This document shows, in pieces, positions 24,101-55,270 of a stretch of DNA of 64,000 bases (positions are counted from its first letter, which is position 1; each line of letters starts with the position of its first letter). The position numbers and the translations under genes are program-made. The stretch lies in the sequence record LR746137. One strand, given 5' to 3'. Source of the DNA: Escherichia phage vB_EcoM_UP17. Under the pieces are notes generated by a model that saw only the letters and a list, made by a program, of their open reading frames with translations, was not told where the DNA came from and made no database searches.

Positions 24101-24179
24101 TCTTTTCTCCTCTCTTTGCGGGGAACTATTCCCCGCTTCATGTGATATATCTTACTCTTTTTAAGAATTATGTCAACAC

Positions 24180-36580: not shown

Positions 36581-36710
36581 CTACCGATAAGAACAAGTAC
36601 TTAAATCTCTGTTCTTCGAACATCTAACGATAGAGATTAATCTATTACATAATCTATACTCGCTATCGCTCGACCCTTCGGGGTTAGGGTAGCATATTTT
36701 TTGAAAAAAG

Positions 36711-37067
36711 TCAACACTTATTTTTGGTAAGTAGATAAATCAATTGTTCACCTGCTTCTGGTGCATATAGTGCTTTAGTATCGAAGTCAAAGAAGTGAGT
36801 GACCCCTGTTACTTTGGATGCCTGAATAGATAATCGTGCAAGCTTAAGCAGATTATCCATTTCCGCAATCTTTGCACGAAACACCGCACGTGTAGCGTCA
36901 AAAGCTGCATGTGGCATGTATTTACGATTTAGACTACTACGTTTAAATTTACGATAATCTGCAATGATCCTGTTACGTTCTTTGTTCAAGTGCTTTACCA
37001 GTGCAGTATATACATGTGGTTCTTTGTTAGCCATTGTTAATCTCCTCTTCATATGTTGGTAGTGCAT
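36711..37067 (-). CDS. Hypothetical basic protein
   Basis: 118 aa ORF. Confidence 0.45.
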   Translation of the reverse strand: MHYQHMKRRLTMANKEPHVYTALVKHLNKERNRIIADYRKFKRSSLNRKYMPHAAFDATRAVFRAKIAEMDNLLKLARLSIQASKVTGVTHFFDFDTKALYAPEAGEQLIYLLTKNKC

Positions 37068-37496: not shown

Positions 37497-37642
37497 AAAA
37501 CCTCCTCATAGTAAGGTAAAGCCTTGATCAGTTGTTCTGAAGTGCCATTTTGCACCCACGTAACACCCTTGTCAAGAGAAACATACCCTTTCTTATTGAT
37601 AAATTTACGGAGACAACCAGTGAACTTGTTTTTGTAGATCAT
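37493..37642 (-). CDS. Small ORF (49 aa), not in ORF track
   Basis: ATGA overlaps at both ends; hand-translated without stops. Confidence 0.3.
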   Translation of the reverse strand: MIYKNKFTGCLRKFINKKGYVSLDKGVTWVQNGTSEQLIKALPYYEEVL

Positions 37643-38073
37643 TTCTTCTTTCCTTTCTTTAATTTGTTGTGACCTTTACCCTTATAAAGCTTGTGATTAC
37701 GAGCAGACGGGTTATTTTGGTTCTCCAGTCGGCTAACAGGTGTATTCCAAAGGTTTCCTGCTACAAAAGATGCTGCCACAAGTTCTTCCAGGTATACAAA
37801 ATCCAAAGCAGGTATCTTTGTTCCCCTCATCTCGCGTTCTACATTAGACAACACTCCTTCTTCCTTACTGTCTTCTTTTTCAATTACAGACCAACCCTCT
37901 TCCTGCCAAGCTTCCCCTCTGAACCAAGTTTCCATGTTACAACCTTGTTCGTCGAGAATAACACCATCTCGCATCTCAAACCATTCACCACCGCAAAAAT
38001 AGCTGTGTTCAACACGCCTACCTTCCTTCATTGCTTCTTTAGCTTCGGTCCAAGTCAGTTTGATGTTTTGCAT
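37639..38073 (-). CDS. Hypothetical protein, first gene of leftward arm
   Basis: 144 aa, SD GAGGAG. Confidence 0.5.
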   Translation of the reverse strand: MQNIKLTWTEAKEAMKEGRRVEHSYFCGGEWFEMRDGVILDEQGCNMETWFRGEAWQEEGWSVIEKEDSKEEGVLSNVEREMRGTKIPALDFVYLEELVAASFVAGNLWNTPVSRLENQNNPSARNHKLYKGKGHNKLKKGKKK

Positions 38074-38103
38074 TTATTTTCTCCTCTCGTTTTGTATGAG
38101 TTG

Positions 38104-38131
38104 ATCTTAACAGGACTAAAAAGCATGTCAA
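38104..38131 (-). promoter_or_regulatory. Leftward promoter of divergent pair
   Basis: Minus strand TTGACA (38131-38126), 16 nt spacer, TAAGAT. Confidence 0.45.
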
Positions 38132-38134
38132 TAC

Positions 38135-38163
38135 TTGATCTGAAATTATTTTCAGGTATCATA
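38135..38163 (+). promoter_or_regulatory. Rightward promoter of divergent pair with palindromic spacer
   Basis: TTGATC, spacer containing CTGAAATTATTTTCAG palindrome, then TATCAT/ATCATA. Confidence 0.45.
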
Positions 38164-38187
38164 TATGAATATTAACAAGAGAGGTAG

Positions 38188-38481
38188 ATGATGAACATTA
38201 CTTTAGCAACTAAGAATATTTCTGAAACAATTAACGGTTTTGGTGTTATTGTAGCCTTGCACGGTAACAACGAGAAATGGTTGGCTTCTTTTGAAGAGGA
38301 TCGTCAACACAACATCATTTTAGACGCTCCTATAAAAGTTATGCATATCCTTGGTGAAAACAAAGTGCTCACTTCCTCCCGTTCAAAGGAACAAATTACA
38401 AACGAACTAGTAAAACTGCTTGACAATGTTCTTAATATGTTTGATAATGCCCCCATCGACACAAAACGTGTCTTAATGTGA
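38188..38481 (+). CDS. Hypothetical protein
   Basis: 97 aa, SD GAGAGG. Confidence 0.5.
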   Translation: MMNITLATKNISETINGFGVIVALHGNNEKWLASFEEDRQHNIILDAPIKVMHILGENKVLTSSRSKEQITNELVKLLDNVLNMFDNAPIDTKRVLM

Positions 38482-38493
38482 GAGGAGAACCAA

Positions 38494-38781
38494 ATGTATT
38501 ATTCACAAAATGAAGTAGCAAACATTAAACTGGCAGTGGGCGATCTTATTGTGTCACCTAACTACTATTGGGATAACACAGATTTGGTTGAAGTAGTAAC
38601 CCATGTTGGAGTTGAAGGTATTGTGCTCTACACACTAGGTGGAGGTGTTGTTGGGGAAATGGAACGTTATACGACAACGAAGAAACTGGTAAGCTCTTAT
38701 CACATGTTTTTACACCAAGGTTCGGAAGAGTATACAGCTTTCTTGTTGAAATTAGATGCAGATCGGGAGAAGGCACGATGA
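38494..38781 (+). CDS. Hypothetical protein
   Basis: 95 aa, SD GAGGAG. Confidence 0.5.
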   Translation: MYYSQNEVANIKLAVGDLIVSPNYYWDNTDLVEVVTHVGVEGIVLYTLGGGVVGEMERYTTTKKLVSSYHMFLHQGSEEYTAFLLKLDADREKAR

Positions 38782-45408: not shown

Positions 45409-45606
45409 ATGGCAACATTGCACATTGTGGCGAAAGCTGGACAAATAAACGTGGTAGTAAACGGTTTTACTGAGTTCAGTCATCCCCAGGATGATCATGA
45501 AACGGTTTTATCTTTCATTGATTCACTGTTAGAAATGGGAGTAATTACAGAAGACCAGCACGCTACAAAATGCAAACGCGTTAATCAGATTGCAGGAATA
45601 GAATAA
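45409..45606 (+). CDS. Early small protein
   Basis: ATG 45409 after GGAG; track start 45331 is TTG inside -35. Confidence 0.5.
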   Translation: MATLHIVAKAGQINVVVNGFTEFSHPQDDHETVLSFIDSLLEMGVITEDQHATKCKRVNQIAGIE

Positions 45607-45612
45607 AAAGTA

Positions 45613-45675
45613 TTGACAACAACCAACAACCTGATAAGATGTATCACATAGGGCGGCGGAATGGTCCAGCCGCTC
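45613..45675 (+). promoter_or_regulatory. Promoter-hairpin unit
   Basis: TTGACA-16-TAAGAT, hairpin 45651-45675 with AATGGT loop. Confidence 0.5.
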
Positions 45676-45698
45676 ACAACAGAAGAGAGATTATAATC

Positions 45699-45971
45699 AT
45701 GGCATCATATAGCGCAACAATGATCGTAGCTGGCACCACTGGTAAACCTATGAGCGGTGGCGGATCTTTCGCAAATATCAACATCGACGGGCGTTTATCC
45801 CTGGACGCAGCGATCACCGTGGCGCGGGAAACATTTAAGAAAGAATGTAAATTCAATAAACAAGATTATCTCGGTTTTGCTATTGAAAAAACCGCGCGCT
45901 TTGTTGATTATAAAAGCCCGAAAATGGTTGATACTACACTAAAAGCGCAAGATGTAGCATTTTTGCTTTAA
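45699..45971 (+). CDS. Early small protein
   Basis: ATG 45699 downstream of hairpin. Confidence 0.5.
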   Translation: MASYSATMIVAGTTGKPMSGGGSFANINIDGRLSLDAAITVARETFKKECKFNKQDYLGFAIEKTARFVDYKSPKMVDTTLKAQDVAFLL

Positions 45972-45974
45972 GGT

Positions 45975-46030
45975 TTGACATTAGCGAATAATTTACTAAT
46001 ATGTTGCATAAGGCGGGAATAGTTCCCGCT
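45975..46030 (+). promoter_or_regulatory. Promoter-hairpin unit
   Basis: TTGACA-16-TAATAT, hairpin GCGGGAA-TAG-TTCCCGC. Confidence 0.5.
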
Positions 46031-46047
46031 ATTTGTAAGGTGGTAGA

Positions 46048-46305
46048 ATGTTTTACATCAAATTAAAAGGTCACGTGATCGCGTTCAAAGATAACGCTTT
46101 TTACAGATTAGCAAAATATGCGTTAATACATCCCCACTATGTTTATATAAGGGGGCGTGATGAAATAAATATCTTTGATCAAACAACATGCGAGAACATC
46201 GAGATCCGCAAGGTTGGCGTACGTGATTATCGTACATCTTTCTACCCTTGCAAAGATTCCGCAAGTCTTTTTAAAGTATGCCAATTGTTGAAAAAAGGTG
46301 GTTAA
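46048..46305 (+). CDS. Early small protein
   Basis: 85 aa, SD AAGGTGG. Confidence 0.5.
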   Translation: MFYIKLKGHVIAFKDNAFYRLAKYALIHPHYVYIRGRDEINIFDQTTCENIEIRKVGVRDYRTSFYPCKDSASLFKVCQLLKKGG

Positions 46306-46306
46306 T

Positions 46307-46864
46307 ATGGGCCGCGAATATGTGATCCAGTCTTGGGTAAAACATGAAGCAGATGATCCGCGCATCATTCCCGATCATCTTATCGATGAATCCACGGGGT
46401 ATAGCGGTGAGCAAATAGGTAACAGATTAGCACGTAGTAACGGCAACGTAAAAGCGCGTTATTTGCGCCCTGGCTGGCTGGCAAATGGTAACGCTGATTT
46501 ATCCAGTGCGGAAGATGCGAGCGACGGCGCGAAAGATAATCCTTTGTACAAAGTTGATCCGGCTTTTCGTGTCCTGGATGAATACCCCAGCAAGATAGCG
46601 GCGCTTGATGAAGCACTGGAAAGTAAGCGCATCACCTGGACCGCTTACAACATGGCAAAAAACGTACTTGATGGTAAATTGATTCAAGCCGAAAGAAAAT
46701 TAGCCAAAATTGCAGCCATAGCCCAGGAGGAAGACGAGGAGACAACGGAAGAGGAAGAGTACGAAGAGATCCCGCCGTTGTTGTGTGTTGATGCTTTTCC
46801 TGATTATCAGCCGACAGAGGAAGAAAAAAGGATCGCACTAGAAAACTTTGAAAATAGTCTTTGA
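46307..46864 (+). CDS. Early protein with acidic C-terminal region
   Basis: ATG 46307 after AGGTGG; EDEETTEEEEYEE. Confidence 0.5.
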   Translation: MGREYVIQSWVKHEADDPRIIPDHLIDESTGYSGEQIGNRLARSNGNVKARYLRPGWLANGNADLSSAEDASDGAKDNPLYKVDPAFRVLDEYPSKIAALDEALESKRITWTAYNMAKNVLDGKLIQAERKLAKIAAIAQEEDEETTEEEEYEEIPPLLCVDAFPDYQPTEEEKRIALENFENSL

Positions 46865-46919
46865 CATATCGCCGCCACTAGCATAATATTTACCACGTAG
46901 GGCGGCAATGGTGCCGCTC
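46861..46919 (+). promoter_or_regulatory. Promoter-hairpin unit
   Basis: TTGACA overlapping upstream stop, 17 nt, TAATAT, hairpin 46900-46919. Confidence 0.5.
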
Positions 46920-46946
46920 ATAGTGAAATTATACAAGAGGCTTACA

Positions 46947-47042
46947 ATGATTAATAAAGAAAATAGCTTGACGGTTGGAACGATTAACGCTATCATTCTA
47001 GCCGTTCCATTTTGGATTGTAGTGGCGGTTATTATTTTCTAA
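46947..47042 (+). CDS. Hydrophobic micro-peptide (31 aa), not in ORF track
   Basis: ATG after AAGAGG; MINKENSLTVGTINAIILAVPFWIVVAVIIF. Confidence 0.3.
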   Translation: MINKENSLTVGTINAIILAVPFWIVVAVIIF

Positions 47043-47051
47043 AAAATATTC

Positions 47052-47112
47052 TTGACAACGTTTTTTAATCTGATAAGATGTGTCACATAGGGCGGCGGAA
47101 TACTTCCCCGCC
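47052..47112 (+). promoter_or_regulatory. Promoter-hairpin unit
   Basis: TTGACA-16-TAAGAT, imperfect hairpin 47090-47112. Confidence 0.5.
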
Positions 47113-47133
47113 AAAACAAAAAAGGGTAACACA

Positions 47134-47496
47134 ATGAGCAAGCAAATCAATACTATCATGTTTAATCTGGTATCTTTCCGCGATGATATGAAAAATTTAC
47201 CACGTGAAACGGTTGATATTCATGTTTCAGCTTATCGCGCCCTTATTGATATGTTACCGCTAAAACGTGATCAACATGCCGCTAATATGATGCTTAATGC
47301 TATGCTTAAAAAGATGATTCAAACGGATCTTACTCTGGCGTATGAGTATCAAGGGCGCTTATATGCTACTTACAACAAAGCGGTACCTGGTCTGGGAAGT
47401 ACCGAAGAGTTGCACGGCTTAAACCTGGATCAAAACAATTGGGATAGTATGCGCCGCGTTATGGTATGGGCCGAAAGCGGTAAAATTTACGAATAA
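47134..47496 (+). CDS. Early small protein
   Basis: ATG 47134 after AAGGG; track GTG start lies in hairpin. Confidence 0.5.
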   Translation: MSKQINTIMFNLVSFRDDMKNLPRETVDIHVSAYRALIDMLPLKRDQHAANMMLNAMLKKMIQTDLTLAYEYQGRLYATYNKAVPGLGSTEELHGLNLDQNNWDSMRRVMVWAESGKIYE

Positions 47497-47502
47497 AAAC
47501 GG

Positions 47503-47559
47503 TTGACACTGTTTAAAATTCTGGTATAGTTTATCACGTAGGGCGGCAATGGTGCCGCC
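47503..47559 (+). promoter_or_regulatory. Promoter-hairpin unit
   Basis: TTGACA-16-TATAGT, hairpin 47541-47559. Confidence 0.5.
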
Positions 47560-47579
47560 AACAATAAAAGGTTAACATC

Positions 47580-47759
47580 ATGGCTATCATTGCAAAAACT
47601 GAGATTATAGGTTTAGATTCGATCCTCCTGGCTTATGAGGAAACTTTAAAAATGTATGTAGTGACCTATGGTGATTATGTGCGTGAATACGAATACATTG
47701 ATCTTGCTTTCGAATGTTACATTAGCCAGGTCAATAAAGCCTATAACGATTATCGTTAA
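47580..47759 (+). CDS. Early small protein (59 aa), not in ORF track
   Basis: ATG after AAAAGG; frame anchored to flanking track genes. Confidence 0.4.
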   Translation: MAIIAKTEIIGLDSILLAYEETLKMYVVTYGDYVREYEYIDLAFECYISQVNKAYNDYR

Positions 47760-47778
47760 AAGTTTTAGTCTTATACTA

Positions 47779-47830
47779 TTGACAATGAGTGATAGTATAA
47801 GCATAATAACTTTTATCGGGAATACTTCCC
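47779..47830 (+). promoter_or_regulatory. Promoter-hairpin unit
   Basis: TTGACA-17-CATAAT, hairpin GGGAA-TAC-TTCCC. Confidence 0.5.
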
Positions 47831-47856
47831 ACTAACCAAAAAGAGAGAGTGACACC

Positions 47857-48222
47857 ATGGCTATTAATATCAATGTTTCCGCTTATGCTACCCTGGCTGA
47901 CACGGCTAAAATTGAATTATCCAGCATTGAGGCGGTGCATATTAGCGCCCGTCGCTGGTTTCAACAGTCCTACGGTAACACATATTTTTCTTTAAGCGTG
48001 GACGTTGAGATCGGCGGTAAACTGATCGAAGTGGTTAACGTGCCGTTTCAATATGGTTATGGTGATCATTTTGATACCGTCGCTATGGAAGAATTTAGCA
48101 AGGTTGTTGACCTGGAAGGCAAGGAATTTTCACGCGGCGCGTATCTTTCCCGTTTTTGCCGTGACAATGGGATCACTGTATACAGTCATGCAAGCGATGT
48201 TAAACGTAAAAAAGATTTATAA
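47857..48222 (+). CDS. Early small protein
   Basis: 121 aa, SD AGAGAGAG. Confidence 0.5.
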   Translation: MAININVSAYATLADTAKIELSSIEAVHISARRWFQQSYGNTYFSLSVDVEIGGKLIEVVNVPFQYGYGDHFDTVAMEEFSKVVDLEGKEFSRGAYLSRFCRDNGITVYSHASDVKRKKDL

Positions 48223-48228
48223 AAGTAG

Positions 48229-48287
48229 TTGACAGCACGAATAAAAAGCGTAAAATGTTTTATATCGAGAGCGGGAATAGTTCCCGC
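48229..48287 (+). promoter_or_regulatory. Promoter-hairpin unit
   Basis: TTGACA-16-TAAAAT, hairpin GCGGGAA-TAG-TTCCCGC. Confidence 0.5.
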
Positions 48288-48312
48288 CTCACTGAAAAAA
48301 GAGATTAACATC

Positions 48313-48552
48313 ATGGCTAAATCTAAAATGTATAACGGTCACAAAAACAAAACTCATTGGAATGTAAGCCTTTGGATTAATAACGATGAGTCATTATACC
48401 GCACCGCGAAAGAATTTATTAGTTATAATTCTAACCGTAATGATGCGGCGTGTGATATGATGCTATTCCTGGAACAGATTGGACAAGATAAAACACCGGA
48501 CGGATTCAAGTATAGTAAAACTGCAATCCGCGCCGCGATGGTTGGAATGTAA
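48313..48552 (+). CDS. Early small protein
   Basis: ATG 48313 after AAGAGA. Confidence 0.5.
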   Translation: MAKSKMYNGHKNKTHWNVSLWINNDESLYRTAKEFISYNSNRNDAACDMMLFLEQIGQDKTPDGFKYSKTAIRAAMVGM

Positions 48553-48561
48553 TAAAAACAG

Positions 48562-48616
48562 TTGACAACGTTTAAAATTAGTGTAAGATGTATCACATAG
48601 GGGCGACAAGCGCCCC
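48562..48616 (+). promoter_or_regulatory. Promoter-hairpin unit
   Basis: TTGACA-16-TAAGAT, hairpin GGGGCG-ACAAG-CGCCCC. Confidence 0.5.
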
Positions 48617-48638
48617 TCCTAACGAAGAGAGAAAAATC

Positions 48639-48866
48639 ATGGCTATCAATATTGTTCGCGTATCCGGCACCGTTGGCACTTCCCAGGTTATTGCAGTTGT
48701 AACAAACAAAAAGATTAATGATGTATGTGAGATCTTGAATAAGTGGGCTGTTGCTAATTTTGGGGAATATGCAAGCGTCGAGTACATCGAATCCTACCAG
48801 GTGCCAACCATCAGCCTGACCGATCTCAACGTTGATCGCCTGTTATGCCTGGATGAATTAATCTGA
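48639..48866 (+). CDS. Early small protein
   Basis: ATG 48639 after GAAGAGAGA. Confidence 0.5.
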   Translation: MAINIVRVSGTVGTSQVIAVVTNKKINDVCEILNKWAVANFGEYASVEYIESYQVPTISLTDLNVDRLLCLDELI

Positions 48867-48875
48867 AAAAGATTG

Positions 48876-48933
48876 TTGACACCGGAAAGAAAAAGAGTAA
48901 ACTGTATTACGTAGGGCGGCAATGGTGCCGCTC
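48876..48933 (+). promoter_or_regulatory. Promoter-hairpin unit
   Basis: TTGACA-16-TAAACT, hairpin GGGCGGCA-ATGG-TGCCGCTC. Confidence 0.5.
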
Positions 48934-48956
48934 ACAACAGAAGAGAGATTATCACG

Positions 48957-49169
48957 ATGGCTAATATCCGCACACTGTTAAAAAATGCAAGTCAAGTTTT
49001 ATTTTCAGATGACGAGTATTTCAATAAAGACATTACAGGCGTGAAGAATATCAAAGATGTAAAAAGTGTTATGGGTATATATTGCAATGTTAAACGTGTT
49101 GGAACGTTCGGTGATAAAGTATTGTACCAATCAGGTGATTACAATTTTACTTTGACGATTATTTCATAA
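48957..49169 (+). CDS. Early small protein
   Basis: 70 aa, SD AGAAGAGAG. Confidence 0.5.
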   Translation: MANIRTLLKNASQVLFSDDEYFNKDITGVKNIKDVKSVMGIYCNVKRVGTFGDKVLYQSGDYNFTLTIIS

Positions 49170-49174
49170 AACGC

Positions 49175-49235
49175 TTGCAATACTGCAAAATAAAGTAAAC
49201 TGTATTACATCAAGGCGGCGGAATGGTCCACCGCC
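49175..49235 (+). promoter_or_regulatory. Promoter-hairpin unit (weaker promoter)
   Basis: TTGCAA then TAAACT-like, hairpin 49212-49235 with AATGGT loop. Confidence 0.4.
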
Positions 49236-49259
49236 TAACAAAGAGAAGAGGAAAATATC

Positions 49260-49427
49260 ATGATCACTTTCGCTACCCGTGAAGCCGCTCGCAACGTTGC
49301 ACGTAAAGTTAACGCCGCCAACCTGGGCGCTACTTTTAAAGCCCCGGTGAAAGATGAATCAGGCAAATGGATCTTCCCTGGTCTGCGTCACGCTGATAAG
49401 CTAGGCACTTTAAGCCTTAAAAAATAA
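49260..49427 (+). CDS. Early small basic protein (55 aa), not in ORF track
   Basis: ATG after AGAGAAGAGG; begins MITFA like the next gene. Confidence 0.4.
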   Translation: MITFATREAARNVARKVNAANLGATFKAPVKDESGKWIFPGLRHADKLGTLSLKK

Positions 49428-49430
49428 TCG

Positions 49431-49468
49431 TTGACTTTTCGTTATAGCGCCTTATAATGGGCGCTATA
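49431..49468 (+). promoter_or_regulatory. Promoter with -10 hexamer inside a 9-bp hairpin loop
   Basis: TTGACT-16-TATAAT; TATAGCGCC and GGCGCTATA pair around loop TTATAATG. Confidence 0.45.
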
Positions 49469-49501
49469 GAGAAGAGAAACCACTACTGACAAGGAAACAC
49501 C

Positions 49502-49723
49502 ATGATCACTTTCGCTATTGTCGCCGTTGTTGCTGGTCAAGTTTACGTAAACGATACATTCACCACAGAAGACAAGGCCGCAGGAGACATAACCGCCGTT
49601 TACAATGAGTGCAAGGCAGTAGAAAGGATGTTAGCGCCTTGTATGTTAATGAGTGAACGCCAGGACGGGATAACAGTGTTTACTAACATTGAGACAGGGT
49701 ACCAAATGGTAGTAACAAAATAA
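49502..49723 (+). CDS. Early small protein
   Basis: 73 aa, N-terminus MITFA shared with 49260 ORF. Confidence 0.5.
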   Translation: MITFAIVAVVAGQVYVNDTFTTEDKAAGDITAVYNECKAVERMLAPCMLMSERQDGITVFTNIETGYQMVVTK

Positions 49724-49726
49724 AGC

Positions 49727-49784
49727 TTGACACGGATTTAATTTTCAGTAAACTGTTACACGTAGGGCGGGAATAGTTCCCGCT
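49727..49784 (+). promoter_or_regulatory. Promoter-hairpin unit
   Basis: TTGACA-16-TAAACT, hairpin GCGGGAA-TAG-TTCCCGC. Confidence 0.5.
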
Positions 49785-49801
49785 AAAAAGAGAGAAAGAC
49801 C

Positions 49802-50155
49802 ATGAAAGCACAAAATGCAATTAAAGAGTACATCCTTGCCGCTATCGATTTTAATGATTACGGTATTACAACCGAAAAAGAGAAGATCGCGGAATTGATG
49901 CGCCGTTTTAATTCCGAGTACTGGTACCCTGATAACCAATCACGTTTTAATTATAGTATTGTTAAAGCACTTGCATCATGGTTACAAGGTTTGCCATCAG
50001 ATATTAATATCGCTTTCGAATATTGGGAAATTGATCGCTTGTTAACATCCTGGGGATACATTAAAGAGAATAGCAGCGATGATAAAATCCAACGAGAAAG
50101 GGAAAATTATTGGCTTTATATTGCAGGCGTGATCCTTGCTTGCTCTTATGAATGA
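49802..50155 (+). CDS. Early small protein
   Basis: 117 aa, SD AGAGAGAAAG. Confidence 0.5.
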   Translation: MKAQNAIKEYILAAIDFNDYGITTEKEKIAELMRRFNSEYWYPDNQSRFNYSIVKALASWLQGLPSDINIAFEYWEIDRLLTSWGYIKENSSDDKIQRERENYWLYIAGVILACSYE

Positions 50156-50161
50156 TAAACC

Positions 50162-50215
50162 TTGACAATTTTACAAAACAGTTTAAATTAATAATATAGC
50201 GGCAATGGTGCCGCT
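50162..50215 (+). promoter_or_regulatory. Promoter-hairpin unit
   Basis: TTGACA-16-TAAATT, hairpin AGCGGCA-ATGG-TGCCGCT. Confidence 0.5.
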
Positions 50216-50234
50216 CATATAAAGAGGAAACAAA

Positions 50235-50381
50235 ATGAATACATCTAATCGCGCAGAAAAAATTCAATCTTCCAAGATCCGTAAGGCCTGGAATGAGGAA
50301 GTGATCCGCAAAGGCGACAAGCGCAATAAAACAAAGCGCGGGAAGAGTGACAAATATAATTGGATGGATTTAGAGGATTAA
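50235..50381 (+). CDS. Small basic protein (48 aa), not in ORF track
   Basis: ATG after AAGAGG; Lys/Arg-rich. Confidence 0.35.
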   Translation: MNTSNRAEKIQSSKIRKAWNEEVIRKGDKRNKTKRGKSDKYNWMDLED

Positions 50382-50389
50382 CATAACAA

Positions 50390-50415
50390 GGGCGCACCAA
50401 GCGCCCTTTCTTTTT
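50390..50415 (+). terminator. Rho-independent terminator
   Basis: GGGCGC-ACCAA-GCGCCC then TTTCTTTTT. Confidence 0.6.
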
Positions 50416-50436
50416 ACATGTAGAGGATAAACAAAA

Positions 50437-50622
50437 ATGATTTTAAACGAGCTTAAAACAGCCTACAGCGCAACATTAAAAATAGCCGTGCGTTACCGTG
50501 ACGAATACGGTTTTATCGCGCAGGGCGTGATCCTGGGCTTTTCTGACGATGGTTTGATCTATGTTGATGCACATCACAACAAGGTTAAACCTGAAAACGT
50601 CATTAGCATAAAATATCTTTAA
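50437..50622 (+). CDS. Early small protein
   Basis: 61 aa, SD GAGGATAA. Confidence 0.45.
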   Translation: MILNELKTAYSATLKIAVRYRDEYGFIAQGVILGFSDDGLIYVDAHHNKVKPENVISIKYL

Positions 50623-50628
50623 AAGTGG

Positions 50629-50688
50629 TTGACACCATAACCGGACCTGTTAAACTGTATTACATCAGGCGGGGAATAGTTCCCCACC
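50629..50688 (+). promoter_or_regulatory. Promoter-hairpin unit
   Basis: TTGACA-16-TAAACT, hairpin GGGGAA-TAG-TTCCCC. Confidence 0.5.
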
Positions 50689-50707
50689 ATACAAAAAGGT
50701 AAATATT

Positions 50708-50914
50708 ATGATCACCGCAAAACAAGAAAAAATCATTATCGACGTTGCAGCCGTTGCCGCTATTGCTATTATTGGATCTTATTATGATACCCGTTTCCCG
50801 TCGGCTATGCATGAGGTCGCCGCCGTTGCATCAGTTGGCGTGCTGTTTTACGTTGGTAAACGCTATTTATCACCAATGATTAACAAGCTGACACCGTGGA
50901 AAAATAAAGGTTGA
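50708..50914 (+). CDS. Early small membrane protein
   Basis: 68 aa, hydrophobic core. Confidence 0.5.
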   Translation: MITAKQEKIIIDVAAVAAIAIIGSYYDTRFPSAMHEVAAVASVGVLFYVGKRYLSPMINKLTPWKNKG

Positions 50915-50965
50915 TCCTGTTTTACATTGTGTTATAGTTATCGTGTAGGGCGGCAATGGTGCCGC
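50911..50965 (+). promoter_or_regulatory. Promoter-hairpin unit
   Basis: TTGATC-16-TATAGT, hairpin GGCGGCA-ATGG-TGCCGC. Confidence 0.45.
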
Positions 50966-50985
50966 GCCCCTTTGAGGATGCAATC

Positions 50986-51270
50986 ATGAGTAAAGCTAAC
51001 ACCGTGCTAATGTTTTCCCTGGTTAATGATCCCGCTTACTTGTCCAACATGACGCAGGAGGGTGACACATTAACGGCAACATTCACCAATAAGCTTGACC
51101 GAGTGATCATCATCTCACTGAAAACAGTTAGTAAAGGCTTTTACTCGTTAGCTTATCATTGGATCACCGATACCGATGAGACAAGCCAGGACTATAGCGC
51201 CCCTTTCCCTGAATCAATGGCACGGGAGATCATCGCCGCCGTTGTAAATGATGGTTTGTTTACTGCATAA
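50986..51270 (+). CDS. Early small protein
   Basis: ATG 50986 after GAGGATG. Confidence 0.5.
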   Translation: MSKANTVLMFSLVNDPAYLSNMTQEGDTLTATFTNKLDRVIIISLKTVSKGFYSLAYHWITDTDETSQDYSAPFPESMAREIIAAVVNDGLFTA

Positions 51271-51288
51271 AATAATTCAGAAAAAGGC

Positions 51289-51345
51289 TTGCAATCATTT
51301 TGGGATAATGTATATTTAATGCATAGGGCGGCGGGAATAGTTCCC
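51289..51345 (+). promoter_or_regulatory. Promoter-hairpin unit
   Basis: TTGCAA-17-TATATT, hairpin GGGAA-TAG-TTCCC. Confidence 0.45.
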
Positions 51346-51368
51346 AAAGCAAACGAGAGGATTACACG

Positions 51369-51488
51369 ATGAGCAAGTACACAGTAGAATACACGGTAGA
51401 AAATCCGGCAGTATCCGAAGGTAAAAAGATGACATTTGCCATCAGTATAATCGCTTTCGTTGTCACTATCTTATCAATCATCTTATAA
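51369..51488 (+). CDS. Hydrophobic micro-peptide (39 aa), not in ORF track
   Basis: ATG after GAGAGG; C-terminal TM segment. Confidence 0.3.
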   Translation: MSKYTVEYTVENPAVSEGKKMTFAISIIAFVVTILSIIL

Positions 51489-51498
51489 GGTGCACACC

Positions 51499-51678
51499 AT
51501 GAAAACATCAGACGTTATCAAATCATCCAAGATTATTAAAGAGATCGCCCTTGCCACTGGCATTGAGATCGAGGAAGTGATCGCGCTCAATCTTACAGAA
51601 GACAACTTGCGCAGCTATGAAACGGAAAGCGTGAAAGCAAGTGGCGCGATCCTGGCATATAATCCGGCTAACAAATAA
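51499..51678 (+). CDS. Early small protein
   Basis: ATG 51499, 10 nt after previous stop. Confidence 0.45.
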   Translation: MKTSDVIKSSKIIKEIALATGIEIEEVIALNLTEDNLRSYETESVKASGAILAYNPANK

Positions 51679-51679
51679 C

Positions 51680-51734
51680 TTGACAAGCTGAATCAACCTG
51701 ATAAGATGTATCACATAGGGGCGACAAGCGCCCC
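51680..51734 (+). promoter_or_regulatory. Promoter-hairpin unit
   Basis: TTGACA-16-TAAGAT, hairpin GGGGCG-ACAAG-CGCCCC. Confidence 0.5.
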
Positions 51735-51755
51735 GCCTAACAGAGAGATAGAATC

Positions 51756-52034
51756 ATGACCATCACCAAATTATCCACCGAAGAAATCGAACAAGTGCTG
51801 ACTACTAATCTGCAAGATTGGAAGCGTGAAGCAGATTTGCAAGCGGTTTGCAAGCTGAATGCAGAATTAACGGAAAATGATATTGACACTATTGTTAGCC
51901 CCGATTTTTATGATGCTATTCATGATGATTCGATTATCCTTGAAACACTGTTAGATAACACTTGGATCAATCCTGATTTGGCAGCTTATGACCGTAGCGC
52001 CTTTATCACTATCCACAATATTTACAACCGTTAA
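51756..52034 (+). CDS. Early small acidic protein
   Basis: 92 aa, SD AGAGAGATAG. Confidence 0.5.
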   Translation: MTITKLSTEEIEQVLTTNLQDWKREADLQAVCKLNAELTENDIDTIVSPDFYDAIHDDSIILETLLDNTWINPDLAAYDRSAFITIHNIYNR

Positions 52035-52043
52035 GGGGATAAC

Positions 52044-52154
52044 ATGAATCCGAAAGACATGCAAGCCTGGAAAGGGTATGATGATCTAAGCGCCTTGCGC
52101 AATAAGTCAAGCCGTAACCTTAGACGATTGGAAGCAAAGAAAAAGAAAAAATAG
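52044..52154 (+). CDS. Small basic ORF (36 aa), not in ORF track
   Basis: ATG after AAGGGGA; Lys-rich tail. Confidence 0.3.
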   Translation: MNPKDMQAWKGYDDLSALRNKSSRNLRRLEAKKKKK

Positions 52155-52155
52155 T

Positions 52156-52213
52156 TTGACAAGTCCGCGTAGTCTGGTAATATGTATCTTGTAGGGCGGC
52201 AATGGTGCCGCTC
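52156..52213 (+). promoter_or_regulatory. Promoter-hairpin unit
   Basis: TTGACA-16-TAATAT, hairpin GGGCGGCA-ATGG-TGCCGCTC. Confidence 0.5.
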
Positions 52214-52232
52214 ACAAGAAGAGAGAAAAATC

Positions 52233-52517
52233 ATGAAAATCACAAAAAGCCTGACTAATTATGCAGCACGTCGCGGATTATGTTTAACCGTTGAAAACTT
52301 AGGGAAAGAAGACTTTTTGTGTTTTTGGGAGCTTGAGAATGATTGCGAGTGGATGTTTTCTTATTCTATCTGCGAAGATCAAAACGGTTGTTTGTTAACC
52401 TGGCGCGGTAATATCTATTTACCGGAAGAAATTAAAGAAGAGCTACCAGGTACGATCATGACAGAGAGACAGCTTAAGGAAGTGATCAATTTTGTAGGGC
52501 AAAACATTAAAAAATAA
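52233..52517 (+). CDS. Early small protein
   Basis: ATG 52233 after AAGAAGAGAGA. Confidence 0.5.
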   Translation: MKITKSLTNYAARRGLCLTVENLGKEDFLCFWELENDCEWMFSYSICEDQNGCLLTWRGNIYLPEEIKEELPGTIMTERQLKEVINFVGQNIKK

Positions 52518-52518
52518 T

Positions 52519-52581
52519 TTGACAGCAGGCAAACAACGTAGTAAAGTTTATTACATAGAGCGGCGGAATGGTCCACCGCTC
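52519..52581 (+). promoter_or_regulatory. Promoter-hairpin unit
   Basis: TTGACA-17-TAAAGT, hairpin 52558-52581 with AATGGT loop. Confidence 0.5.
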
Positions 52582-52602
52582 ACAACAGAAGAGAAACAAA
52601 TC

Positions 52603-52773
52603 ATGATCCCGACTATGTTTTATGTATCGCGCAAAGGTCACAATATTTTTTGGTCTGAAGATTTAAATGAAGCTATGACGTTTGCCCGTGATCGTGTTGC
52701 TATCGGTGGCGTTAACATCACCGTAACCGATGAAAATGGTATTGAATACTATAACGGCGACGATGAAGAATAA
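52603..52773 (+). CDS. Early small protein
   Basis: ATG 52603 after AGAAGAGAAA. Confidence 0.5.
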   Translation: MIPTMFYVSRKGHNIFWSEDLNEAMTFARDRVAIGGVNITVTDENGIEYYNGDDEE

Positions 52774-52810
52774 TTGACAACCTGAAAGCTGTATTTTTAA
52801 AATACAGCTT
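52774..52810 (+). promoter_or_regulatory. TTGACA followed by perfect 8-bp hairpin
   Basis: AAGCTGTA-TTTTTAAAA-TACAGCTT directly after a -35-like hexamer. Confidence 0.35.
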
Positions 52811-52831
52811 AGAAAATGTAGTAAATAAACC

Positions 52832-52893
52832 TTGACAATGGTTTGTTATCTGGTAAAGTGTACTACGTAGGGCGGGGCAATGGTGCAACGCCC
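52832..52893 (+). promoter_or_regulatory. Promoter-hairpin unit (variant hairpin)
   Basis: TTGACA-16-TAAAGT, hairpin GGGCGGGGCAATGGTGCAACGCCC. Confidence 0.45.
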
Positions 52894-52911
52894 ATTAATG
52901 AGGGTAGAATC

Positions 52912-53016
52912 ATGTTAGAGAAAATTTTCACGGTTGCAGTGGTTGGCCTGGCGTTATCGGTTGGAGTAGTTGCAACTATGGCTAACATGATCCTATCTTC
53001 CCACGGTATCGGTTAA
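52912..53016 (+). CDS. Hydrophobic micro-peptide (34 aa), not in ORF track
   Basis: ATG after GAGGG; single TM-like segment. Confidence 0.3.
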   Translation: MLEKIFTVAVVGLALSVGVVATMANMILSSHGIG

Positions 53017-53026
53017 GGTGAAACAA

Positions 53027-53242
53027 ATGATCACGAACAAAACAGGCAAAACGGAATTTTTACGCGGCTTACAAGTTGGTAAGCCTGAGATCTGGCATTG
53101 CACGAAGTCCGCGCATAATGAAATGAAAGATTTCACCGCTACTTTACAACGTGTTAAAATATCTATTACGCAGAAAAAAGCCTTATTAGTAGTAGAAAAC
53201 GAGATCCCGCAAACTATTATTATTGTCGAGCGTACAGCATGA
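53027..53242 (+). CDS. Early small protein
   Basis: ATG 53027 after AAGGTG. Confidence 0.45.
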   Translation: MITNKTGKTEFLRGLQVGKPEIWHCTKSAHNEMKDFTATLQRVKISITQKKALLVVENEIPQTIIIVERTA

Positions 53243-53625
53243 AAACAGAAATCATTATTGAAATCATCAACGGCTATAAAGAAGCCTTTATTTTTGCTGA
53301 ATCAGCAAGGGATCATGAAGGTAATTTTATTGATAACTTAGACGATTATGATTTTTCTCCTAGTGCGGATCAACGGATCGCCCAGGATGTAACAGTCTTT
53401 ATTAATGCTAATCTTGCCGCTATCTCTGAGGCAATGAGCGACGGCGCAACAGCCAACCAGATCGGGAATGATTTACATTTTACCCGTAACAGTCACGGCG
53501 TAGGCTTTTGGGATCGCCCTGAAATATACACCACTAACACGGCGAACCGCCTAACCAATGCAGCTAAGTTTATGCCGAACGTGTCGGCTTACATTGGTGA
53601 AGATAATTTGATTTATATTGAATAA
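53239..53625 (+). CDS. Early protein
   Basis: 128 aa, ATGA overlap with upstream gene. Confidence 0.5.
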   Translation: MKTEIIIEIINGYKEAFIFAESARDHEGNFIDNLDDYDFSPSADQRIAQDVTVFINANLAAISEAMSDGATANQIGNDLHFTRNSHGVGFWDRPEIYTTNTANRLTNAAKFMPNVSAYIGEDNLIYIE

Positions 53626-53631
53626 AAAGTA

Positions 53632-53689
53632 TTGACACAGATCGCCAGTGTGCTAATATTTACCACGTAGGGCGGCAATGGTGCCGCTC
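53632..53689 (+). promoter_or_regulatory. Promoter-hairpin unit
   Basis: TTGACA-16-TAATAT, hairpin GGGCGGCA-ATGG-TGCCGCTC. Confidence 0.5.
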
Positions 53690-53708
53690 CCCGAAAAAGG
53701 TAAACATT

Positions 53709-53900
53709 ATGAAAACCATCTCCTACCTGGAATCGAATAACATGTTTTTTGCGCCCGTTGATGAAATCATCGAAGCATTAAACAACGAGGAAGGGATCAA
53801 AGGTTTATCTTATAGCCAACTTTTAGGAATGGTTGCAGCAAATGAAGAGCTTGCTTACTATGTTGAAAATTTTGATGAAGCTGTAATCTTTACAAAATAA
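53709..53900 (+). CDS. Early small acidic protein
   Basis: 63 aa, SD AAAAAGG. Confidence 0.5.
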   Translation: MKTISYLESNNMFFAPVDEIIEALNNEEGIKGLSYSQLLGMVAANEELAYYVENFDEAVIFTK

Positions 53901-53903
53901 TCC

Positions 53904-53960
53904 TTGATCTAATCTCTTAGATAACTTATATTTAATGTGTAGGGCGGCAATGGTGCCGCC
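53904..53960 (+). promoter_or_regulatory. Promoter-hairpin unit
   Basis: TTGATC-17-TATATT, hairpin GGGCGGCA-ATGG-TGCCGCC. Confidence 0.5.
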
Positions 53961-53978
53961 GATAACGAGGAAAGTAAA

Positions 53979-54278
53979 ATGGAAACTATCGCTATTGTTA
54001 CCGTAGAAAAGCTGGTTGTTGGTGATGTATTCGCGTTAATGGTGCCTAACAGCAGCAAGCTGGGCGCTTATGAAGTAATGGATCATAAAAATGAATCATT
54101 TGGCGACGGTTGCACAATGGCGGTAAAATCTTTAAAGGATGGAATCATCCGCCAGGCTAACTGGCACAAAGGGAATCAAGTCGGTTTAATATCAGCTAAT
54201 TTCTTGCCAGAAGAGCAAACGTTAGACCAACTATCAGGCGGTAAGACGTTAGCCGAACTACTGGAAACAGCGATCTAA
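53979..54278 (+). CDS. Early small protein
   Basis: 99 aa, SD GAGGAAAG. Confidence 0.5.
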   Translation: METIAIVTVEKLVVGDVFALMVPNSSKLGAYEVMDHKNESFGDGCTMAVKSLKDGIIRQANWHKGNQVGLISANFLPEEQTLDQLSGGKTLAELLETAI

Positions 54279-54286
54279 TCAACAAA

Positions 54287-54302
54287 GGGGCGGCAACGCC
54301 CC
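54287..54302 (+). promoter_or_regulatory. Leader hairpin with GCAA tetraloop, no obvious promoter
   Basis: GGGGCG-GCAA-CGCCCC, 20 nt before ATG 54323. Confidence 0.4.
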
Positions 54303-54322
54303 ACATCAGAAAGGAAAAGATT

Positions 54323-54559
54323 ATGAGTATTGCAACAGTATTAACCGCCGTTAAAACCGCTGAATCATCCGGCTTGCATGTTGAGCTTATAGATCAACCA
54401 GGTGGCGATCTCCTTGTCCAGGTTTACCCGCCGAAAGTAGGGGATGATCATTATTGGTGTTATTCTGATACGTTCGAACAAGTAGACACGAAAGCGATCA
54501 CAACCTTTATTTTAAAAGCCGTTGAAGAAAATAACTTTCATTATAACATCAATCAATAA
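54323..54559 (+). CDS. Early small protein
   Basis: 78 aa, SD AAAGGAAAAG. Confidence 0.5.
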   Translation: MSIATVLTAVKTAESSGLHVELIDQPGGDLLVQVYPPKVGDDHYWCYSDTFEQVDTKAITTFILKAVEENNFHYNINQ

Positions 54560-54569
54560 ACCATAAGCA

Positions 54570-54584
54570 GGGCGGTAACGCCCC
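54570..54584 (+). promoter_or_regulatory. Leader hairpin with GTAA tetraloop
   Basis: GGGCG-GTAA-CGCCC upstream of ATG 54614. Confidence 0.4.
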
Positions 54585-54613
54585 ATTAAACGCAATAGGA
54601 AGAGGATAGACGT

Positions 54614-54898
54614 ATGAAAAAGATGATCGCAGTAGTTGCCCTGGTTGTTGGTATTAACGCGCCTACACTGGCTAATGAGTTGCCAGAATCCATCACGCTA
54701 ACCGACATCAACGCAGTGAATCGGATCGGTGTTAATTATCGCCTATGCCTTGCCGCTAAAACTTTCCAGGACGGCACGACAGAGTACTACGGATTCGAGG
54801 GTATCCGCTGCGGTGAGCTTGCACGCGACCTTAAGGAAGATCCAGACCTTGAGGCCATACCGATGACCGTAAACGGTAAAGCCCACGTAAACCGCTAA
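54614..54898 (+). CDS. Secreted small protein
   Basis: Signal peptide MKKMIAVVALVVGINAPTLA. Confidence 0.5.
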   Translation: MKKMIAVVALVVGINAPTLANELPESITLTDINAVNRIGVNYRLCLAAKTFQDGTTEYYGFEGIRCGELARDLKEDPDLEAIPMTVNGKAHVNR

Positions 54899-54900
54899 CC

Positions 54901-55035
54901 ATGAGAAAGGTAATCATCACAATGGGGATCGTAGTAGCAACGCTGGCGCTTATCCCTTTCATGGTTGAACATGTGCTGATCAGTGTTGTCCTTATAGTCA
55001 GTGACCTATTGGAAACGGTTGGCACCTGGTTTTAA
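54901..55035 (+). CDS. Hydrophobic micro-peptide (44 aa, or 37 aa from internal ATG 54922), not in ORF track
   Basis: Two hydrophobic segments; weak SD; terminator follows. Confidence 0.3.
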   Translation: MRKVIITMGIVVATLALIPFMVEHVLISVVLIVSDLLETVGTWF

Positions 55036-55043
55036 GATAATAA

Positions 55044-55070
55044 ATAGGGCTTGCAATAGTCCTATTTTTT
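55044..55070 (+). terminator. Rho-independent terminator
   Basis: ATAGGGC...GTCCTAT stem then TTTTTT. Confidence 0.5.
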
Positions 55071-55209
55071 GTTATACTTGTTGAACGGGCGGCACCTGGG
55101 AGCAGGGGAAGATAATCACCGGAAGACTCCGCTATATATTGATAACTAACGCCTATCAAACAACAAAACATCAAAGGAACAAACTATCAAATCTTTACAA
55201 TTCCACCTA

Positions 55210-55270
55210 TTGACACCGGATCACGCTTACACTATTATTTATCACGTAGGGCGAGCAATACAGCAAGCCC
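55210..55270 (+). promoter_or_regulatory. Promoter with degenerate hairpin
   Basis: TTGACA-17-TATTAT; GGGC...GCCC short stem at 55249-55270. Confidence 0.45.

Follow-up and report, generated by a model that had tools for sequence, protein, structure and literature searches.

A back-to-back pair of probable sigma-70-type early promoters where two non-structural gene arms diverge in an Escherichia phage of the genus Phapecoctavirus

We analysed a short intergenic region of Escherichia phage vB_EcoM_UP17, referred to here as the hub, from which leftward and rightward genes diverge; the stretch of DNA in which it lies, 64 kb in full, is referred to as the window. We consider it likely that the hub is a back-to-back pair of early promoters of the host sigma-70 type, placed where two arms of non-structural genes diverge, and that both promoters fire in the manner set out below. 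This reading is built on the sequence elements present in the hub, on their match to a family of promoters that the phage itself carries in many copies, and on conservation among relatives that falls at specific promoter positions.

Results

Two arms of non-structural genes diverge at the hub

The 2.5 kb surrounding the hub is 97–98% identical in more than 60 GenBank phage records of the window's genus, Phapecoctavirus (subfamily Stephanstirmvirinae), and near-identical relatives include phAPEC8, dw-ec, ASO2A and anhysbys. Phages of this genus are virulent E. coli myoviruses with genomes of approximately 150 kb. Between about 2.9 kb and 38,073 of the window, almost every long ORF is encoded on the minus strand; from 38,188 they switch to the plus strand. 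A first-pass annotation of this DNA had leftward and rightward transcription units diverging within 114 bp, and this was borne out, with positions 38074–38187 lying between a CAT at 38071–38073 and an ATG at 38188; the gap is 117 bp if the rightward gene begins instead at the ATG at 38191.

Moving away from the hub, the left arm carries small hypothetical genes followed by a helicase, aerobic and anaerobic ribonucleotide reductases, a primase-helicase and a DNA polymerase, while the right arm carries small hypothetical genes followed by an ATPase, an endonuclease and a dense promoter array. From this gene content, both arms are non-structural, with early or DNA-metabolism functions, and the layout is therefore not one of an early arm facing a late arm. 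Each arm also has many promoter-like sites of its own, and a scan of the whole window found these to be predominantly co-oriented with the genes (approximately 26 sense versus 7 antisense in the left arm, and approximately 36 versus 5 in the right arm).

Layout of the hub

The first-pass annotation had described back-to-back promoters with TTGACA and TTGATC as their -35 hexamers. Sequence reading and a consensus scan located both of them, on opposite strands. The features of the hub and its flanking genes are as follows, where lineages are those of the alignment described in the next section.

37639–38073, minus strand: first leftward gene, 144 aa, phrog_22208 (from the ORF list; a hypothetical protein in relatives)
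38080–38088, minus strand: ribosome-binding site for the leftward gene (minus-strand sequence GAGAGGAGA); TCTCCT is invariant in 11 of 11 lineages
38094–38098, minus strand: block CATAC with the predicted leftward start, A 38097, 7 nt after the -10
38104–38112, minus strand: leftward extended -10, TGT TAAGAT (consensus scan, conservation and promoter-family design)
38118–38122, no strand assigned: A-tract of the leftward spacer, positions -51 to -47 relative to the rightward start
38126–38131, minus strand: leftward -35, TTGACA (consensus scan); GTCAA on the plus strand is invariant in all lineages
38135–38140, plus strand: rightward -35, TTGATC; TTGA is invariant
38140–38155, no strand assigned: palindrome CTGAAATTATTTTCAG, with 6-bp arms and a 4-bp centre, in the rightward spacer
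38157–38162, plus strand: rightward -10, TATCAT; T-12, A-11 and T-7 are invariant
38169, plus strand: predicted rightward start, A, 7 nt after the -10 and invariant in all lineages
38179–38184, plus strand: ribosome-binding site of the rightward gene (GAGAGG), 6 nt before the ATG at 38191; AGAGG is kept in most lineages
38191–38481, plus strand: first rightward gene, 96 aa, DUF7325 (Pfam PF24011, E = 3e-24)

The two -35 hexamers are separated by only 3 bp, so that the core elements of the promoters do not overlap and their upstream regions are shared. The predicted starts, both at conserved positions, have 72 bp between them. As a consequence of this spacing, the AT-rich spacer of each promoter is placed at approximately -45 to -56 of the other. 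In the leftward spacer, A38119 and A38120 of the A-tract are invariant among the 11 lineages and A38118 is nearly so, and it is possible that this tract acts as an UP-like contact for the rightward promoter.

The predicted leaders are 24 and 22 nt long, with folding energies of -1.0 and -3.9 kcal/mol, and shuffled sequences fold equally well. When the hub was searched against Rfam, no match was found at the gathering threshold or at E ≤ 1. An RNA element or terminator was considered as an identity for the palindrome and set aside, the dyad being upstream of both predicted starts, the leaders unstructured and Rfam without a match.

Promoter quality and conservation

The leftward promoter (TTGACA, 16 nt, TG-n-TAAGAT) matches the consensus at 10 of 12 hexamer positions and has the TG of an extended -10 in addition, and the rightward promoter (TTGATC, 16 nt, TATCAT) matches at 9 of 12 positions and has no TG. 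To score both sites, a weight matrix was built from 15 repeated promoters of the window's own family, which themselves score between 12.4 and 27.1 bits. With this matrix the leftward promoter reached 18.6 bits, inside the family range, and ranked 15th of the 127,872 positions on both strands. The rightward promoter ranked approximately 600th, below the family score range.

To assess conservation, the hub was aligned across 11 lineages, comprising three Phapecoctavirus, phiWec179, phiWec190, three Justusliebigvirus, an IMG/VR contig, Citrobacter phage Tr1 and Klebsiella phage KP13-16, with a mean column identity of 70%. A pattern scan of IMG/VR had returned 45 loci, four of which were true relatives (L013, L020, L030 and L032) and the remainder chance matches. 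All 17 canonical sigma-70 positions were invariant in the alignment, versus 25 of the 97 other hub positions (Fisher P = 3e-9). Since this set of 17 was picked after the alignment had been seen, the comparison was also made for all 26 hexamer and TG positions, a set fixed a priori; on this more conservative footing, 17 of 26 were invariant versus 25 of 88 (P = 8e-4). The invariant columns comprise TTGAC and TG-n-TA...T of the leftward promoter and TTGA and TA...T of the rightward promoter. Invariant columns also fall in the two Shine-Dalgarno sequences and the two start codons. In the leftward start block, G38094, T38095, A38096 and G38098 are invariant and position 38097 is nearly so. Judged by sequence, promoter quality and this sigma-70 phylogenetic footprint, as independent tests, support the view that both promoters are real, and it is this part of the first-pass annotation, the divergent promoter hub, that stands.

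The edges of the hub coincide with mosaic breakpoints when window positions 37890–38370 are compared with three relatives. Identity to the window is 74% in the left coding flank and 97% in the hub for tuntematon, 96% in the left flank and 74% in the hub for phiWec190, and 76% in the hub and 96% in the right flank for BME3. From these alignments, the conserved hub may serve as a recombination joint between exchangeable gene modules.

Flanking genes

The first leftward protein had no Pfam or PDB match in sequence searches, which returned PHROG matches only. Its residues 4–65 correspond to the phrog_3474 module, which is common to shorter phage proteins, and its C-terminal tail (KLYKGKGHNKLKKGKKK) is strongly basic. 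The fifth leftward gene is followed by a 130-bp gap (36590–36712, minus strand) with a folding energy of -26.8 kcal/mol (z = -2.2 versus shuffles). This gap opens with TTGACT...TACCCT, followed by a small hairpin, ACCC-CGAA-GGGT, and a rho-independent terminator is annotated at the equivalent position in the ASO2A record. The first leftward transcription unit probably ends here.

Two in-frame ATGs, at 38188 and 38191, could start the first rightward gene. As only the latter is conserved and correctly spaced from the ribosome-binding site (6 nt from GAGG), and as database homologues of the protein are 96 aa long, the sequence comparison indicates that the gene probably begins at 38191 and not at 38188. 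In Tr1 (893) and KP13-16 (703) the annotated first rightward gene starts inside or immediately after the conserved rightward -10, and the starts given there are therefore probably too far upstream; the DUF7325 homologue of KP13-16 comes second rather than first in gene order. The next rightward gene in the window, at 38494, encodes a Phage_tudor domain.

The DUF7325 protein has 25 aligned database homologues with 57–98% identity. With these homologues, AlphaFold predicted a fold of five strands, a helix and a final strand (pLDDT 95, pTM 0.85), with two of the five models confident. Compared with the PDB, this model had no structural neighbour at E ≤ 0.001, and neither a helix-turn-helix (HTH) nor a ribbon-helix-helix (RHH) was present in it. 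Sequence searches of the PDB with both flanking proteins gave nothing significant, and among the ten ORFs flanking the hub no DNA-binding Pfam domain was found.

The palindrome in the rightward spacer

The first-pass annotation had also pointed to a palindrome in the rightward spacer, and this is indeed present, its first base being the last base of the rightward -35 hexamer. Its further proposal, that the palindrome is a candidate operator coordinating a switch between the two arms, is not supported, the palindrome occurring at chance frequency and as a single copy, with its outer arms lost in relatives and no DNA-binding protein found adjacent to it. Perfect inverted repeats whose arms are 6 bp or longer and whose loop is no longer than 8 occur in 33% of dinucleotide-shuffled versions of the hub and in 25% of the window's 114-bp tiles, and the palindrome is thus statistically unremarkable. 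No second copy of the 16-mer, with up to three mismatches or as an arms-only pattern, was found in the 64-kb window. The relaxed core, GAAA-N4-TTTC, has four further occurrences in the window, none of them at the hub and none among the listed promoter-like sites.

Across relatives, the outer CAG of the palindrome is replaced by TAG in phiWec179 and phiWec190 and by CTG in Justusliebigvirus, and both outer arms, CTG and CAG, are lost in Tr1 and KP13-16, so that the complete arms are kept only in the window's clade. The only invariant bases are AAAT (38143–38146) and TT (38150–38151). The GAAA-N4-TTTC dyad is kept in four of seven lineage groups, a level of conservation that the AT-rich composition makes ambiguous.

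An operator at this site, either the full CTGAAATTATTTTCAG or its GAAA-N4-TTTC core, would lie between the rightward -35 and -10 and just upstream of the leftward promoter, where a phage or host protein bound to it could shut off or balance both divergent promoters. We regard such an operator as unlikely. The dyad lies wholly inside the rightward spacer, and a post-hoc test reached this placement in about 1% of shuffled versions of the 19-nt spacer segment; the dyad core recurs in the window's clade, in Justusliebigvirus and in the IMG/VR contig L030; and the AAAT and TT that are invariant everywhere are not strictly needed for plain promoter function. These points are offset by the inverted repeats of equal size in 25–33% of comparable segments, by the single copy in 64 kb, by the arms broken in phiWec179/190, Justusliebigvirus and Tr1/KP13-16, and by neighbours that include no DNA-binding Pfam domain and a DUF7325 model with no HTH, RHH or Cro-like fold. 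Partial dyads are also cheap by chance because the sequence is AT-rich. Moreover, since both arms have early or DNA-metabolism functions and dozens of co-oriented promoters of their own, the hub cannot be the sole control point between temporal classes. A narrower version, in which the dyad core at 38142–38153 is a putative site for a phage early protein or a host nucleoid protein that throttles both early promoters, seems to us slightly less probable again; if true, a virulent phage family would have a minimal shut-off device made of one operator.

The AT core (38142–38153) lies at -45 to -56 of the predicted leftward start, and its minus strand agrees with the UP distal consensus AAAWWTWTTTT at 9 of 11 positions. 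This match is only suggestive, since matches of this quality occur once per 276 nt of strand in the AT-rich window. The conserved AT core would most simply be spacer or UP-like sequence that tunes promoter strength.

The rightward promoter

The rightward site is the weaker consensus match of the two, and it could be argued that the leftward promoter alone is functional, with TTGATC/TATCAT decayed and the right arm transcribed from a site further downstream, such as the TTGACA-17-GATAAT at 38420. We consider this very unlikely. In its favour are the 9 of 12 match with a 16-nt spacer and no TG, the rank of approximately 600, the presence of an 11 of 12 site 280 bp downstream, within the first gene, and the ASO2A annotation, which marks the leftward promoter alone. 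Conversely, TTGA, T-12, A-11, T-7 and the A at +1 are invariant in all lineages, the window's included, and loss of the promoter would leave the conserved DUF7325 gene without one. Two family cassettes, at 50911 and 53904, likewise have TTGATC as their -35.

In distant relatives the rightward promoter is near-consensus (TTGACA-16-TAAGAT, TTGACA-16-TAAAAT and TTGACT-16-TATTAT). The -35 variants in these phages are TTGACA, TTGACT and TTGACC, and those of the -10 in relatives are TACAAT, TACTCT, TAAGAT, TATTAT and TAAAAT. As the site is near-consensus in distant relatives, we read it from the alignment as a real promoter that has drifted in the window's lineage with its critical bases kept.

An alternative rightward promoter, TTAACA-17-AATACT at 38107, was rejected, since relatives do not keep its -10 and its -35 simply reads the leftward extended -10 in reverse. 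The TTGACA-17-GATAAT site (38420–38448, plus strand; 11 of 12) lies in the 3' end of the first rightward gene, upstream of the gene at 38494, and its position suggests an internal early promoter.

Other readings of the hub

A replication origin, with the palindrome and AT-rich tracts as its elements, is highly improbable. GC skew changes from approximately -0.17 to +0.20 at 38 kb and reaches its cumulative minimum at the hub, as would be expected of an origin, but this flip coincides exactly with the change of coding strand; skew changes in phage rV5 were ascribed by its authors to the same cause, coding-strand orientation (PMC3606486). In addition, the 114 bp is wholly occupied by two promoters, two leaders and two ribosome-binding sites, and no iterons or repeat arrays were found. 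The origin reading was rejected because the skew flip follows gene orientation.

Least credible of all is that the palindrome is a site for a host regulator, LexA or Cra/FruR. It does match CTG-N10-CAG with an AT-rich centre, as in a LexA box, and its CTGAAA/TTTCAG half-sites resemble the Cra/FruR half-site, both likenesses being judged by reading of the motifs. Against this, CTG-N10-CAG occurs five times in the window, three times with an AT-rich centre; the site reads CTGA-N8-TCAG and not CTGT-N8-ACAG, with A and T in place of T and A at positions 4 and 13; the half-sites are 2 bp further apart than in the Cra operator; and the essential CTG and CAG are lost in sister clades.

Two further candidates were rejected. 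A T4-like MotA box, TGCTTTTT, is found just after the leftward -35, but its TGCTT is not conserved, being TACTT, AGCTT or TTCTC in relatives. By reading, its spacing to the -10 is approximately 9 nt, which is short of the 11–13 nt between MotA box and -10 in T4 middle promoters. Control by Dam methylation was considered for the two GATC sites, one in the leftward -10 (38103–38106; TAAGATC) and one in the rightward -35 (38137–38140), which lie within a 7-bp direct repeat, TTGATCT. GATC is not avoided in this genome (334 observed versus 228–304 expected), and two sites in 114 bp have P = 0.12. By reading of the alignment, only the window's clade carries the leftward GATC, and BME3 and Eryne also keep the rightward one.

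An array of promoter cassettes in the right arm

Approximately 20 near-identical promoter cassettes are present between tiny ORFs at 45600–55250 (plus strand), with one further copy at 24176 (minus strand). Each cassette has an A-rich upstream stretch, TTGACA, a 16-nt spacer and (TG)nTAAGAT, TAAACT or TAATAT, followed by a GC hairpin, GGGCGGC-aatggt-GCCGC, approximately 10 nt after the -10, with folding energies of -8 to -21 kcal/mol. The leftward hub promoter has the design of this family, TTGACA-16-(TG)nTAAGAT. Leader folding found no GC-rich hairpin (GGGCGGC..GCCGC) after the hub promoters, unlike the cassettes of the array.

The array resembles the PeSL promoter/stem-loop cassettes of T4-type phages, which mediate gene shuffling (Arbiol et al. 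2010, PMC2839356; Comeau et al. 2014, PMC4122927). In the literature searched, no description of such a cassette array was found for Stephanstirmvirinae.

Discussion

On the reading that we favour, of two host-type early promoters set back to back, the hub would recruit E. coli RNA polymerase holoenzyme to both promoters on infection. The leftward promoter would be strong, with its start near 38097, and the rightward promoter weaker, with its start near 38169; each transcript would open with a short unstructured leader of 20–25 nt that carries a strong Shine-Dalgarno sequence and leads into a string of small early genes. The placement of these start positions and the early timing are predictions drawn from promoter type and gene content, and each promoter might make use of UP-like sequence in the spacer of the other. 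The balance between the arms would probably be set by interference or competition between the two polymerases, rather than by a dedicated operator. In the literature searched, neither transcriptomes nor mapped start sites turned up for Phapecoctavirus, Stephanstirmvirinae or rV5-like phages.

Parts of this arrangement have precedents. In rV5, bidirectional promoters were described at the analogous junction of genes 10 and 11 from consensus prediction only (Kropinski et al. 2013, PMC3606486). Like the window's phage, rV5 is a large virulent myovirus of the broad rV5-like group, with a strand-switch point at which GC skew changes and a back-to-back pair of sigma-70-type promoters (TTGACT leftward and TTGACA rightward) with small leaders. 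The two sites differ in that the rV5 -35 hexamers are 13 bp apart rather than 3, its spacer has no AT-rich dyad, and its flanking genes encode a fucosyltransferase and an Srd-like/HNH protein; on reading, without alignment, the intergenic sequences have no evident similarity. In ASO2A (MZ726793.1), whose hub is 91% identical, the promoter annotated at 138612–138639 is the ortholog of the leftward promoter. That record, the annotation of which carries no experimental support, marks the leftward promoter only, with neither a rightward promoter nor a palindrome annotated. The leftward promoter is therefore already annotated in ASO2A, and the analogous site in rV5 is already described.

The PR/PRM pair of phage lambda is likewise back-to-back. 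Its start sites are 82 bp apart, a few helical turns as in the hub (approximately 72 bp), and polymerase at one of these promoters can affect the other. Lambda, however, has three repeated 17-bp operators, OR1-3, with cI and cro adjoining, whereas the hub has one unremarkable dyad, no repeated operator and no adjoining gene recognisable as DNA-binding (by Pfam and the DUF7325 model), and it belongs to a virulent phage with early genes on both sides. T4-type early and PeSL promoters share with the hub the character of strong sigma-70 early promoters with AT-rich upstream and spacer regions, although Stephanstirmvirinae are not T4-type phages.

We judge the hub to be an ordinary pair of early promoters, set back to back, from a phage genus that is well sampled. 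If our reading is right, its practical value is modest, and no new regulatory principle follows from it. It would nonetheless give Phapecoctavirus and related phages, coliphages that are candidates for therapy, well-founded coordinates for two predicted early promoters with their leaders, and would correct the likely start codon of the first rightward gene. As a compact bidirectional sigma-70 promoter module, with 72 bp between its predicted starts, the hub could also serve phage engineering.
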